Shown here: in pieces, positions 1,264 through 13,501 of the stretch
Position numbering within the stretch: position 1 is the first letter of the stretch
Layout of the letters: every line of letters begins with the position of its first letter
IMG/VR virus record: IMGVR_UViG_2721755498_000002
Strand: one strand, 5' to 3'
DNA length: 15,135 nucleotides
Source of the DNA: a virus
Lineage: Duplodnaviria > Heunggongvirae > Uroviricota > Caudoviricetes
Translations under genes and position numbers: made by a program
The notes under the pieces: model-generated
Database searches by the model: none
Seen by the model: the letters and a program-made list of their open reading frames with translations, nothing else
What the model was told of the DNA's origin: nothing

Positions 1264-2156
1264 CTATTTCCAGTTACAAGCAGCTTGAAGTGGTTTTAGC
1301 GCGTTTGACAGGCCGTTTAAATTGAAAGTTGCACTTACAGGGCTCTCATTATAAGGAGTTATTTTTGTATACATTTTGTTTGAGTTGGCTAGTTTTCGGA
1401 TGAAATCAATGTCATTACCTTTATAAAAAACAGCCTTTGTATCTGTAGATACTAGCCAGTTTCGCTCAACTGCTTTCTGTTTATCAAGACGATAAAGCAT
1501 GCTGGTTTGTTCAAGGCCTAAATATACATCCCAACTAAGAAATACTTCGGTTTTCTTTTCTCGGCAAGCTATAAACAGAGTGGGAGTAACCGCTTCTCCA
1601 AATGGAGTTCTGATATAATCATCACTTTCTAACGATAAAATTACATTTTTCGAATCATCAATTGGCGATGTAGTAATGGATGTGTGCCATTTTCCTACAT
1701 CTGTGGCTTTCTCTAATTTTGATTCAGCTTGAACAGCTTTATCCTGTGGGAATAGTTTATCGTAGCAGTTTAGTCTGGCTTCTTTATCATTTTCTGCTCG
1801 GCATTTAGATATCTCAGAAAGATTTGGTTGCTGAGCCTCTGTTGTTACTGGCTTTTCCGTTTTAGATTTTGAGTTTACAGATGGAGTAAATGTTGGAGAA
1901 AAAAACGATCATAACAAGATAAACGTCTGTCATCATCTTTCTCATCAGGGCATTGATCTCTGCTTTCGAATTTTTCAGCAACTTTCGTTCGAGTCGGTTG
2001 TATTGACTTATCGTAACAAGAAAGTCTGTCTTTATTATTTTCTATTGCTCGGCACTGGAGTACTGCATTGAAGTTATTATGTTCAGTTGCTGCGTGAACA
2101 GGCAGTACACTAATTGATATAAATGATGCACCTATAGAAAAAATTATATTTTTCAT
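1264..2156 (-). pseudogene. secreted Cys-repeat protein gene split by a frameshift in an A7/T7 homopolymer (ORFs 1875..2156 and 1264..1908)
   Basis: The 93-aa ORF starts with a signal-peptide-like MKNIIFSIGASFISISVLPVHA. Its frame stops at 1875-1877, while a second frame is open from 1908 down to 1264 with no start codon until 1500. The two frames overlap across the A7 run at 1899-1905; one extra base would fuse them into about 297 aa. The motif RL[SN]CYD[KR] occurs three times across both halves, which supports a single original gene. Confidence 0.5.
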
Positions 2157-2160
2157 TTTG

Positions 2161-2493
2161 TTATCCTTTTGGTTTAGTAAGAAATACTAAAATTCCGATA
2201 ATGATATCGCCAATAACCCATAAACTTCCAATGGTAATTAAACCTAAGCCTGTACCAATAACTGCACCGGCTTTTTCGGCATCGGATGTAGCATTATTTA
2301 TTATTTCACTAGTGCCTCCCAGTCCAACTAAAAGCGTATAGATCATAAAAATATTAAATAATATAAATATCCACTTAATGAGCTTTCCAAAAAATGAACG
2401 CTTAAGTTTTTTTATTTGTTTACCGCAAGCAGGGCAATACAATGCTGAATCGCTCACCTCTTTCTGGCATTCAGGACATTTGATTAATGCCAT
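2161..2493 (-). CDS. zinc-ribbon domain membrane protein (N-terminal CPEC-x13-CPAC, then two hydrophobic glycine-rich helices)
   Basis: 110-aa ORF with a strong RBS (AAGGAGG) upstream of the ATG at 2493. Stop is 4 nt from the start of the downstream signal-peptide ORF, suggesting an operon. AT-rich. Confidence 0.6.
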   Translation of the reverse strand: MALIKCPECQKEVSDSALYCPACGKQIKKLKRSFFGKLIKWIFILFNIFMIYTLLVGLGGTSEIINNATSDAEKAGAVIGTGLGLITIGSLWVIGDIIIGILVFLTKPKG

Positions 2494-2753
2494 GTAATCC
2501 GCCTCCTTTGGATCAATACGAGTTGATATTTGTTACAAAACATTTTGATTTTATCAGATTTTTTTTATTGATAAGTGTCAATTGATTAGCTGGTATAGAG
2601 TGAGACATATAGAAGGGCAGATCTGTATCAGTAGTGATGCAAAAATCCCACAGTTTCATGGAATTTTTGCATTTAGAGCCGTGAGATAGGGTGCCTTATC
2701 GACCTTACCCTGGCAACCGATTGACGGGGGATTACTCCCCCGTCGCGGTTTCC

Positions 2754-2894
2754 TTACTGCTTACACTGTAAGAACGCCGCAAACTCCGCTCCCCAGAAAC
2801 TCATCCGTATTTCGCACAGCGAACCGTGCAACATCCAGATGATGAGGATTACCGTCACGCAGAACGTGATGGCTGTAAGCGATTTTTGCGACAT
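2754..2894 (-). CDS. hok: Hok/Gef-family type I toxin (46 aa: MSQKSLTAITFCVTVILIIWMLHGSLCEIRMSFWGAEFAAFLQCKQ)
   Basis: Hand translation of the - strand. Single N-terminal transmembrane helix followed by the SLCE[IL] and E[LFV]AAF[LM] motifs typical of Hok proteins (compare HokA ...WMIRDSLCELHIKQESYELAAFLACK... as recalled). AAGGAG RBS 8 nt upstream. GC-rich hairpin (2723-2744) just downstream. Not in the ORF track because it is under 60 aa. Confidence 0.7.
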   Translation of the reverse strand: MSQKSLTAITFCVTVILIIWMLHGSLCEIRMSFWGAEFAAFLQCKQ

Positions 2895-3084
2895 AGCACT
2901 TGCTCCTTTTCCGGAGAGGCGCTAACCTTTCACTTGCTTAGGGTAGACGGTTAGGGCCTCGGTTAAACAAAAGTGTTTTCCGGGGCCTTTCCACATCTGG
3001 CCTTCGGGTATTCCCTCCGACCATCAGCCGAAAGGCACCCGCGCGTAATCTATCGCTTTTTTGTTACTCCGGCAATTCTGCTTG

Positions 3085-3345
3085 TTAATTCTGAGGTAAA
3101 GGCAAACTCATCTGATTGTTTCCCCTGTGTGAAGCTGGTAGCACATGCCACGGGATACCTTCTGAAGAGTGAACGCCGGAGGCGTGTTTCGATGTGAATT
3201 TATGGAAAGCTTCCAGTGTTGAGAAGCATACGCCGCATTCCAGATTGTTACACTGGTAATACTTTTGCCGCACGGTGTTTGAATCATTTTCCGGACGACT
3301 TGTGCGGATACGGGCAGATGCGCCACAAAGCGGACAACGGAACAT
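3085..3345 (-). CDS. ogr: Ogr/Delta-family zinc-finger late transcription activator
   Basis: N-terminus MFRCPLCGASARIRTSR...YYQCNNLECGVCF matches the C-x2-C-x22-C-x4-C Ogr zinc finger (P2 Ogr begins MFHCPLCQHAAHARTSR as recalled). AGGGAGG RBS 5 nt upstream of the ATG. Confidence 0.85.
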   Translation of the reverse strand: MFRCPLCGASARIRTSRPENDSNTVRQKYYQCNNLECGVCFSTLEAFHKFTSKHASGVHSSEGIPWHVLPASHRGNNQMSLPLPQN

Positions 3346-3428
3346 AGCGACCTCCCTTAACGTGGTGTTGCCGCTATTCTAGATTGTACGATCCCTAATT
3401 CCAACTAACAGCTCGCTCTGTGCGAAGA

Positions 3429-3536: not shown

Positions 3537-4559
3537 ATGGGAAGAGATATAACGCTGTACCCTAAAAAAGCAACTAGAAACGAACTTAAAAATTACCTTG
3601 AAAATTTAGGTTTTAAAAGGTGTAAACATTTGTGGGAATGGCCCCAAGGAACGTTGAATTACTCTTGGTTTGATGATACGGACTTCAAATCTACAGATGG
3701 AGTTTCGGCTGATATATATCCTGTTTCAAATGACGAATTACACATATCTGGTAATAAATGGGCATTGCATGTGCGTAATTTATATAGCGCTAGTTGGCAT
3801 GATGTAAAAATGCTTAATGATGTTCTAAAAGGCGCAAGGAGTCTTTTTGGTGGAACACTTATAGGTGATTATGGGAAAAATAGGTACGCTCCTCTATGGA
3901 AGGATTCTAGTAGTCCGATCAGTCGTGGCATTTCTTCAATATTTAATCATGTCCATCATGAGATTTCCGCTGTTAAACATGCCTTACCTGAACCTTCTAT
4001 TAAATTAAACCTACCGGAAGATGGCGGTTTATCCGAATACTTTGATTACATGCAATGTATGGATCCCAGTAGAGTTATATATAATGGATTAGTACCTTTT
4101 GCGGTTGCTATGTTTGAATACTTTTTCTCTAGAGCTTTTCAAATACTTATAAAGTACGATCCTTTCGCAATAGCAAAAAGAACATCGTATAAGCAAAAAG
4201 TTGATTTTGATATTCTGCTTGAGATAGAGAAAGGAAATATTTCAATAGAAAGTGTTATTGCAAGAAATTACACTTTTCAAAACTTAACCCACCTAAACAA
4301 AGCATATAAAGAGTGGCTGGATATAGATGTGAGAGCGATTCTTTATAAGAAAAAAAGAATTGGAAAATCAGTTGATTTTCTTGAGAATCGAATTTCTGAA
4401 ATCATACAATATAGACATGGGATAGTTCATCACTTTGAGTTGGATAGGACCTTAAATCGGGATGGATATATTCATATATTAGATGCGATAGAAAAAAGCA
4501 TAATTGAATTTATCCATTACATAGAAGGCAAATACAAATTTAAATTAAATGCGTATTAA
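3537..4559 (+). CDS. hypothetical 340-aa protein; AT-rich cargo gene with a C-terminal HEPN-like R-x4-H motif (YRHGIVHH, residues 292-299); candidate abortive-infection or defence protein
   Basis: Long uninterrupted ORF with strongly AT-biased codon usage, unlike the flanking phage genes. Sits between ogr and D on the opposite strand. Lys/Ile/Asn/Tyr-rich composition. No family recognised by eye. Confidence 0.7.
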   Translation: MGRDITLYPKKATRNELKNYLENLGFKRCKHLWEWPQGTLNYSWFDDTDFKSTDGVSADIYPVSNDELHISGNKWALHVRNLYSASWHDVKMLNDVLKGARSLFGGTLIGDYGKNRYAPLWKDSSSPISRGISSIFNHVHHEISAVKHALPEPSIKLNLPEDGGLSEYFDYMQCMDPSRVIYNGLVPFAVAMFEYFFSRAFQILIKYDPFAIAKRTSYKQKVDFDILLEIEKGNISIESVIARNYTFQNLTHLNKAYKEWLDIDVRAILYKKKRIGKSVDFLENRISEIIQYRHGIVHHFELDRTLNRDGYIHILDAIEKSIIEFIHYIEGKYKFKLNAY

Positions 4560-12901: not shown

Positions 12902-13501
12902 TTATGCTTGTTTACTCCTTGATTCCACTGGGGAAGCTGGCCACTCAATATCCGGTGCTCTTGATGTATCAACACGGTTCAGCAGCACTCGATACTTCTT
13001 CCAGGCTTCCAGCAACGAGATTTCTTCCTCCGTTGCGATTTCCAGATCTACAGCATCCTGAAGTGGCGCAATATGCTCACTGGCTACCTGCATCAGGCTG
13101 TTTTTTGTTTCTTCTGCCTCCCGGATCCGGAACAGTTTTTCTGCTTCCGTATCCTTCACCCAGGCTGTGCCGTTCCACTTCTGATATTCCCCTTCCGGCG
13201 ACGACCAGGTAACATTTTCCGGTAACGGACCGAGTTCAGAAATAAATAACGCGTCGCCGGAAGCCACGTCATAAACCGTTTTACCACGATGATCTTCAAC
13301 GAGATGCCAAGACGCCCCATCACTGTTGAAAACAGCCACGAAGCCAGCTGGAATATCTGGCGGAGCAATATCAGTACTATTTGCAGGCAGACCTGTATGA
13401 GGTGGAATGTATGCATCACCTTCACCAATAAATTCATTGGTTCCGACCAGCAGATTATAAATTTTTATGGTTCGTGGTTGTTCACTCATTCTGAATGCCA
13501 T
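12902..13501 (-). CDS. tfa: tail fibre assembly protein (Tfa / P2 gpG-like chaperone)
   Basis: 199 aa with the conserved Tfa C-terminus ([30 protein letters not shown]). Start overlaps the stop of the upstream tail-fibre fragment (TAATG). Confidence 0.85.

Follow-up and report, generated by a model that had tools for sequence, protein, structure and literature searches.

A hok/sok-type module just beyond ogr in a P2-like prophage of Escherichia coli, from a Hok subfamily without a conserved mok frame

Does the short minus-strand reading frame beside ogr in this phage sequence belong to a hok/sok-type type I toxin-antitoxin locus, as an original prediction made from the sequence alone had proposed, and, if so, which of the elements that control such toxins accompany it? 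Within the window, the whole stretch of 15,135 nt that was analyzed, region 2500-3400 shares 99.8 to 99.9% identity with many E. coli chromosomes and with predicted Peduoviridae (P2-like) prophage records. The gene order on one of these chromosomes (NZ_CP134716) is flk, “TagO,” a zinc-ribbon gene, a gene for a “Hok/Gef family protein,” Ogr/Delta, a hypothetical gene, and tail gene D, and the order D, ogr, hok is kept in Salmonella P2-like prophages. We consider it highly probable (roughly 0.88) that the locus, as accessory cargo just beyond ogr in an E. coli prophage of the P2-like (Peduoviridae) group, constitutes a type I toxin-antitoxin module of the hok/sok kind. The proposal of a hok/sok-like locus at this place is borne out by a match of the toxin to profile HMMs, by the hok architecture of the predicted mRNA, and by the homology of the predicted Sok to sokB and sokC. 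The “TagO” frame is broken in the window and intact in relatives.

The module is carried by 1741 of 5426 complete E. coli genomes (~32%), with up to nine copies per genome, and conserved homologues retrieved by database searches number in the hundreds. Among the matches listed for the complete E. coli genomes, the coding sequence is annotated as a Hok/Gef family protein, and no RNA feature is found at the module under any of them. Copies of the P2 type and copies from Stx phages are homologous over exactly 2689..3061, from the promoter −10 through fbi, and the DNA of the Stx-phage relative is 82% identical to that of the window. The P2-like copies occupy a cargo region after ogr, close to one end of the prophage. 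This position is consistent with the reported enrichment of hok in prophages (10.1101/2025.08.07.668861), and prophage stabilization, phage exclusion, and lysis timing are candidate roles consistent with it. A PADLOC search gave no match for Hok or its neighbors.

Sequence comparison identifies the 46-aa product of the frame, MSQKSLTAITFCVTVILIIWMLHGSLCEIRMSFWGAEFAAFLQCKQ, as a Hok/Gef membrane toxin. The frame lies exactly where it had been predicted, with the GGAG of its ribosome-binding site (RBS) 8 nt upstream of the ATG. The peptide scores 30.1 bits against Pfam PF01848 (HOK_GEF; gathering cut-off, 22 bits), with residues 7-44 on profile positions 5-42 of 42, and 82.8 bits against PHROG 251 (E = 2.5e-23). 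The narrower NCBIfam models remain below their cut-offs (HokA, the best NCBIfam match, at 35.8 versus 89; Hok at 23.6 versus 73). Hok-family signatures had been claimed, and alignment with the family had been suggested as a check; HokA of K-12 proved to be the closest named Hok (43% identity, E = 2e-11), and the conserved Cys, Thr, L-C-E, and E..A are all kept. When the peptide is aligned with R1 Hok, HokA, HokB, and HokC, all five sequences agree at C12, T14, L26, E28, E37, and A39, whereas C27 is common to R1 Hok, HokA, and HokC and is replaced by Tyr in HokB. The conserved residues of a published Hok catalogue (C16, T18, L30, C31, E32, and E41) match the conserved positions of the window peptide.

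The relatives form a 46-aa subfamily with the C terminus AEFAAFLQCKQ and members in E. coli, Shigella, Salmonella, Citrobacter, and Klebsiella oxytoca, and where a source names them, they are called Hok/Gef family protein or HokA. The dN/dS ratio of hok between the window and 22 aligned homologues is 0 to 0.36, and judged from these sequences, the frame is intact and under purifying selection.

The gene had also been called unannotated, which is true only of the view from which that prediction was made: RefSeq (WP_000078920.1), PHROGs, and a published catalogue all list it. RefSeq phage records label the coding sequence “MokW-like host killing,” which is also the name of PHROG 251. The exact peptide is entry 1628 in Files S1 and S3 of the 2026 bioRxiv Hok catalogue (Escalera-Maurer et al., 10.1101/2025.08.07.668861), and Hok cluster 72 of that work, WP_000078920.1, and PHROG 251 correspond to one another, with a protein identical to that of the window. 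Two representatives of cluster 72, 72_1621 (one residue different from the window peptide) and 72_1589, were chosen for toxicity testing (Table S2 of that work); 42 of the 45 tested homologues were toxic, and neither representative is among the three nontoxic constructs (10.1101/2025.08.07.668861). The locus is therefore a real, apparently intact hok/sok-type module that was already known, and its discovery value is small, given a toxin gene that is routinely annotated, carried by roughly one in three complete E. coli genomes, and catalogued with toxicity tests. The authors of the catalogue explicitly place mok, Sok, and the mRNA elements outside their analysis (10.1101/2025.08.07.668861), and for this reason the catalogue contains neither the RNA anatomy nor the absence of mok described below. 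Annotation of Sok and of the mRNA switch elements is likewise missing from the RefSeq entries that were inspected. The features assigned to the module are collected in Table 1.

Table 1. Features of the hok/sok-type module, with positions in the window
Feature	Position	Strand	Basis
Predicted hok promoter: −35 TTGCCG 3075-3070, 17-nt spacer, −10 TAGATT 3052-3047	3047..3075	-	Read from sequence
hok mRNA, 5' end GGGUGCCUU to just beyond fbi	2686..3040	-	Rfam RF01794, MFE fold, pairing in 24 homologues
tac, 5'-terminal element	3026..3040	-	Pairs with fbi or with ucb
24-codon leader ORF: SD-like GAAGG 3005-3001, AUG 2996, UAG 2924-2922	2922..2996	-	Not conserved
ucb, upstream complementary box GAAAGGCCCC	2982..2994	-	Inverted repeat I5, 90% complementary
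Sok target (sokT) hairpin GAGGCCCUAACC...GGUUAGCGCCUC, loop CCCUAAGC	2916..2960	-	Fold of truncated RNA, covariation
hok SD GGAG 2906-2903 and conserved anti-SD CUCC 2916-2913	2903..2916	-	RNAalifold, helix 6
hok CDS, 46 aa and stop	2754..2894	-	Pfam PF01848, PHROG 251, RefSeq WP_000078920.1 at same coordinates, dN/dS
GC-rich 3'UTR hairpin, arms 2723-2731/2736-2744	2722..2745	-	Inverted repeat I4, covariation
fbi, fold-back inhibitory element	2689..2704	-	Pairs with tac in full-length mRNA
AU-rich 14-bp hairpin downstream of fbi	2637..2672	-	Inverted repeat I1
Predicted sok promoter: −35 TTGCTC 2900-2905, 17-nt spacer, −10 TAACCT 2923-2928	2900..2928	+	Positional homology to K-12 sokB
Predicted Sok RNA: single-stranded 5' tail GCUUAGGGUAGACGG, terminator hairpin 2953-2989, UUUCC	2936..2995	+	sokB/sokC homology

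The frame would be expressed from a stable minus-strand mRNA of ~355 to 400 nt with a predicted start at G3040, 7 nt beyond the −10. A consensus sigma-70 scan of region 2500-3400 returned no site, and both the hok and the sok promoters fall below its threshold; both were called from positional homology or conservation and not from consensus strength. A −10-like hexamer (TAGATT, TAGAAT, TAAATT, or TAGAGT) 6 nt ahead of GGGTGCC is kept in nearly all homologues, and the −35 falls outside the module shared with Stx phages. Rfam model RF01794 matches 3040..2881 on the minus strand over its full length from position 1, with 51.9 bits (E = 1.2e-10), which is 7 bits short of its gathering score of 59; hokC and hokB of K-12 score 118 and 110 bits and the Stx-phage homologue scores 33.1 bits. 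Although named “sok,” this model describes the sense-strand hok leader, since in K-12 it matches the hok strand, opposite to the annotated sokB and sokC. Clearly homologous yet divergent, the match in the window accounts for the missing RNA annotation at the locus; for this subfamily, the model falls short by those 7 bits. Subthreshold Rfam matches to sR1, CsrC, and Flavi SL6 (E = 0.13 to 8.8) were dismissed as chance.

Folding of the predicted transcript (3040..2685) gives a minimum free energy (MFE) of −160.1 kcal/mol (z = −8.0) with the two ends paired. Homologous modules were gathered from genome, viral, and assembly collections, and 24 diverse ones from E. coli, Salmonella, Citrobacter, and Klebsiella were aligned. 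When the full-length fold is mapped onto these homologues, 91.9% of the cells are paired, compared with 39 to 45% when the partners are slid. RNAalifold, which was not seeded by the fold of the window, also finds the end pairing, the ucb pairing, the anti-SD pairing, and a helix that buries the AUG.

The end pairing was the starting point of the original prediction, which had noted long-range complementarity of the kind expected of hok transcripts. It is exact, in that GGGTGCCTT (2689-2697, plus strand) is the reverse complement of AAGGCACCC (3032-3040, plus strand), with 334 nt between the arms. This 9-mer and its reverse complement occur only twice in the window; shuffles of the window average 0.13 occurrences, and 1 of 200 contained at least two matches. 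By a rough estimate, ~0.4 inverted repeats of 9 nt are expected within 440 nt, and finding one of this length is not unusual. The end pair is nevertheless real, because it extends to 15 bp, sits at both ends of the conserved module (2689..3061), and covaries. Across the 24 homologues, the 15 pairs of the tac/fbi helix are 95.4% paired, and four of them are changed on both sides (e.g., UA:13/CG:11 and CG:13/GC:11). The 12 pairs of the tac/ucb helix are 96.7% paired, with three changed on both sides.

Folding had been suggested as a means of looking for tac/fbi architecture, and covariation in both helices now accompanies the paired ends of the MFE structure. Columns 10-11 of the alignment change in step with fbi (UA:13/CG:11) as well as with ucb (UA:13/CG:9), and covariation of one set of 5' columns with two partners marks pairings that exclude each other. 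Such pairings are the defining logic of hok mRNAs in the R1 model (PMC9841398). A 3'-truncated RNA (3040..2720; fold z = −6.8) refolds so that tac pairs with ucb and hairpin 2960..2916 forms. In the predicted full-length mRNA, then, tac at the 5' end is paired with fbi at the 3' end, ucb is paired with 2955-2962, and the SD and AUG of hok are buried; in the predicted truncated form, tac is able to switch to ucb, and the Sok target hairpin can then form.

Downstream of the hok stop, a GC-rich hairpin had been reported at 2723-2744 and is found exactly there, with arms that are 100% complementary. It is 98.6% paired among the 24 homologues, with compensatory changes in five of its nine pairs, and it is likely to mark the 3' end of the processed, active mRNA; the equivalent 3' stem-loop of R1 stabilizes the truncated mRNA (PMC9841398). 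The 3' end of the full-length hok mRNA probably lies further downstream of 2686. Most other homologues have a strong intrinsic terminator ~20 to 35 nt past fbi, whereas the lineage of the window, including L016 and L080, has the AU-rich hairpin in place of a canonical terminator. This hairpin is without a U tail and is the sole candidate transcription stop in that lineage.

The comparisons also point to a cis-encoded Sok gene with its own predicted promoter and terminator opposite the hok leader. The original prediction had placed Sok on the plus strand at around 2900-3040; the strand is upheld by homology to sokB and sokC, but the extent is smaller, with an RNA of ~60 nt whose 3' end is uncertain by ~5 nt and a promoter immediately upstream of it. 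A sigma-70 promoter for sok had also been anticipated, and although no site emerged from the consensus scan, a weak one can be placed by homology. Its hexamers are weak matches to consensus (the −10 of K-12 sokB is TAAGAT, and that of other subfamily members is TATCCT), and the annotated 5' end of K-12 sokB aligns to G2936. A terminator of the form GGCCUCGG...CCGGGGCC followed by U-rich sequence is common to the window and to K-12 sokB and sokC. The predicted Sok folds with −23.2 kcal/mol (z = −2.8), and its terminator hairpin is 93.6% paired, with seven pairs changed on both sides. An invariant U·G in this hairpin corresponds to a C·A mismatch on the mRNA strand, and this strand-specific pair indicates that the Sok hairpin is selected on the plus strand. 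A plus-strand ORF in the same region (2973..3197) had been called spurious; it is present, is antisense to the hok leader and to the 3' end of ogr, and has no match in a Pfam search.

On the mRNA, the target hairpin has a loop, CCCUAAGC, complementary to the 5' tail of Sok (GCUUAGGG...); in our reading of the alignment, this loop appears to hold a YUNR-type motif that is kept across variants. The hairpin is 94.7% paired in the 24 homologues, with two pairs changed on both sides, and one homologue (L103) carries a three-way change: C>U in ucb, GAGGCC>GAGACC, and GCGCCUC>GCGUCUC. The SD of hok is paired with CUCC and its flanks in every modeled state of the mRNA. Within these flanks, AGCGC forms pairs with G(U/C)GCU immediately ahead of the hok AUG, and RNAalifold pairs columns 123-127 with columns 148-152 (helix 6, 93.2% paired). 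Even in the truncated form, the SD stays mostly paired in the models, with an unpaired probability of 0.15 and an opening energy of ~9 kcal/mol. Differences in SD unpaired probability among the mRNA states are small and inconsistent, and the RBS opening energy is more informative. Its medians are 13.0 kcal/mol for the full-length RNA, 9.2 kcal/mol for the truncated RNA, and 14.0 kcal/mol for the truncated RNA with the Sok site masked, where masking is a crude proxy for Sok binding. The energy falls upon truncation in 23 of the 24 homologues and rises again with masking in 22 of them.

In K-12 hokB and hokC, mok starts 7 to 8 nt past a GAGG box and overlaps hok, and R1 mok starts at the same position. 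The GAGG box is invariant in the subfamily described here, and no start codon follows it; in the window, the canonical position is not occupied by ATG, GTG, or TTG. For the majority of 25 homologues, the two alternative frames that cross the hok start likewise contain no initiation codon ahead of the hok SD. Two candidates were dropped: a GUG 5 nt ahead of the hok AUG, which opens a 14-codon ORF only in the window and in L010, and a GUG at mRNA nucleotide 3 in the Salmonella clade, which falls within the tac stem and is not preceded by an SD. The overlapping mok frame for which a search had been proposed is thus absent after examination of all frames with canonical starts. As far as sequence comparison goes, the absence of a conserved mok frame is a real departure from the model established for plasmid R1, and it is the only point about the locus that is mildly new.

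If the R1 model is carried over, slow 3' trimming would take off fbi and trigger the tac/ucb form, the 5' tail of Sok would then touch the target loop, and RNase III would cut the resulting hok/Sok duplex. Once sok transcription halts, the unstable Sok would decay and Hok would be made; possible triggers would be prophage loss, transcription shut-off, or induction. Because the subfamily has no conserved mok frame, Sok would probably exert its control directly at the hok RBS. Less certain is how this would be done: the 3' arm of the target hairpin may double as an extended anti-SD, and Sok bound to the 5' arm may free the 3' arm to resequester the hok SD. The modeled RBS opening energies fit such direct control through competition between the target hairpin and the extended anti-SD. 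We offer tentatively, as something we would not yet wager on, the broader reading that the 46-aa “QCKQ” Hok subfamily (cluster 72) is a naturally mok-less branch of hok/sok in which Sok may serve as a structural switch that closes the hok RBS. If true, it would represent a second regulatory logic within the best-studied type I toxin-antitoxin family. A subfamily without an element that textbooks treat as integral would also be a handy natural system in which to ask whether hok/sok can do without mok.

Alternatively, the 24-codon leader ORF, which stops 28 nt before the hok AUG, could act as the functional mok. Ribosomes that end at its UAG would melt the anti-SD (2916-2913), and Sok would block the ORF, since the Sok duplex starts 2 nt past the leader AUG. 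An SD-like GAAGG lies 4 nt upstream of that AUG, which is kept in the E. coli/Stx-phage clade, and in three homologues (L010, L080, and L084) the leader frame runs for 61 to 79 codons across hok, as a true mok would. The pairing of the hok SD in all folding models also favors this alternative, as does the finding that what counts in R1 is that ribosomes translate mok as far as the hok SD (PMC9841398). However, the leader AUG is confined to the E. coli/Stx-phage clade and is missing throughout the Salmonella/Klebsiella clade, and the position of the stop drifts between mRNA nucleotides 104 and 284. The ORF also lies off the position that mok takes in K-12 hokC and hokB, and its peptide has no family match in Pfam. 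We regard a functional stand-in for mok at this place as possible, and on this mixed evidence the alternative as a whole seems rather doubtful.

A second alternative, that the locus is a decaying, nonfunctional relic hitchhiking on the prophage in the manner of the IS-disrupted hokA, hokC, and hokE of K-12, is very improbable. The promoters are weak relative to consensus, mok is missing, the canonical terminator has been replaced in the lineage of the window, and degraded relatives do exist (L097 without tac and promoter, and L012 with a deletion in the leader). Decay is nevertheless hard to reconcile with an intact ORF under purifying selection and with the preservation of all RNA helices by compensatory changes. 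It also sits poorly with the number of complete E. coli genomes that contain the module (~1741 of 5426, with the gene labeled as a Hok/Gef family protein in the matches listed) and with the one-residue variant 72_1621, which was selected for toxicity testing and is not one of the three nontoxic constructs of the catalogue. Chance coincidence of an ORF and an inverted repeat in ordinary intergenic DNA, for which one could cite our own estimate that a lone 9-nt repeat within 440 nt is not rare, is already refuted by HMM matches at curated thresholds, the covariation of several helices, a fold z of −8, and hundreds of conserved homologues.

As a hok/sok-type module, the locus shares with the R1 system (parB) a Hok-family toxin, the tac/fbi and tac/ucb pairings, a target hairpin recognized by the 5' tail of Sok, and a sok promoter within the hok SD region with a −10 of the form T-A-x-C-C-T. 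The stabilizing stem-loop of the 3'UTR is a further point of likeness to the R1 model (PMC9841398). In contrast to R1, the module resides on a prophage rather than on a plasmid, has no mok AUG after the conserved GAGG, and, in the lineage of the window, has no canonical terminator after fbi; the toxin is only ~30% identical to R1 Hok and has 46 rather than 52 aa. Compared with K-12 hokA, hokB/sokB, and hokC/sokC, it matches the same Rfam leader model, and the Sok terminator and 5' end align. It differs in its lower RF01794 score (51.9 bits versus 110 to 118 bits), in the C terminus of its Hok subfamily (...AEFAAFLQCKQ), and in lacking the mok frames that are annotated in K-12.

Another prophage system, hokW/sokW of the Stx2 prophage Sp5/933W, is toxic, is neutralized by Sok, and speeds lysis and phage release after induction (PMC8621323). 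By analogy, a similar role in lysis or phage release is plausible for the locus in the window. An identity with hokW/sokW of Sp5 was considered and ruled out, since hokW encodes a different paralogue of 51 aa (MKQQKAM...) and belongs to a lambdoid rather than a P2-like phage. The Stx-phage relative of the module is a second locus, separate from hokW/sokW. Outside the family, the proposed mechanism resembles aapA/IsoA of Helicobacter pylori, in which alternative mRNA folds hide or expose the SD of the toxin itself and 3' processing activates the mRNA (PMC9841398); this likeness is purely a functional analogy between systems with no sequence relationship.

The Rfam family RF01794, although named "sok," is a model of the sense-strand hok mRNA leader, extending from the 5' end of the transcript to the hok AUG. 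In E. coli K-12, matches to this family lie on the opposite strand from the annotated sokB and sokC genes; matches are seen at positions 502-654 of L004 and 567-718 of L005. Matches to RF01794 therefore flag the leaders of hok genes and not the antisense Sok RNAs.

Several of the collected loci carry variant forms of the hok module. Two Salmonella loci (L101 and L102) contain tandem pairs of complete modules approximately 490 nt apart, and in a further Salmonella copy (L097), the promoter and the 5'-terminal tac element of the mRNA are gone but the remainder is kept. A locus from Citrobacter braakii (L013, about 1207-1572) has a leader ORF of 34 codons whose UGA stop overlaps the hok AUG (UGAUG), which is the classic arrangement for translational coupling and is unique to this locus among the members. 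This enterobacterial hok (protein identity, 74-100%) was also found on contigs labeled as Planococcaceae bacterium UBA3378, Vagococcus sp. WN89Y, and Xanthomonas pisi (L007, L008, and L011); these most likely represent enterobacterial contamination of those assemblies.

Coordinates of features in the window and of the tandem hok modules
Feature	Coordinates	Strand	Remarks
Broken TagO gene	1264-2156	-	297 aa in close relatives; two ORF fragments in window
Zinc-ribbon protein	2161-2493	-	110 aa; C-terminal membrane segment; phrog_6586
AU-rich inverted repeat	2637-2672		14 bp; downstream of hok, in place of usual terminator
340-aa ORF	3537-4559	+	Between ogr and tail gene D
Tandem hok modules, L101 (Salmonella)	1501-1641 and 1991-2131
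Tandem hok modules, L102 (Salmonella)	1501-1641 and 1995-2135

In the related phage record PhiR44_2, both the zinc-ribbon gene and the TagO-like gene follow hok, and thus the prophage cargo reaches past hok. The TagO counterpart in PhiR44_2 and in NZ_CP134716 is annotated as a "type VI secretion system-associated protein TagO." The window's copy is probably a pseudogene: the full frame is interrupted by 15 stops, leaving fragments at 1264-1500 and 1875-2156 (- strand). The zinc-ribbon protein has a weak DrpB-like match in NCBIfam.

PhiR44_2 lacks the 340-aa ORF, and its ogr gene directly adjoins gene D. No match to this ORF was found in PADLOC, PHROG, or NCBIfam, and a weak similarity to RiboL-PSP-HEPN was below the threshold (22.5 bits versus 28.4). 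The ORF may represent an uncharacterized defense or accessory gene within a variable region of P2-like phages. Elsewhere in the window, Rfam IS009 (RF02111) has a full-length match at 12960-13158 (- strand), scoring 218.5 bits versus a gathering score of 117. One arm of the AU-rich repeat, GCAAAAATC (2639-2647, + strand), additionally shows perfect complementarity to codons 2 to 4 at the start of hok (2881-2889).
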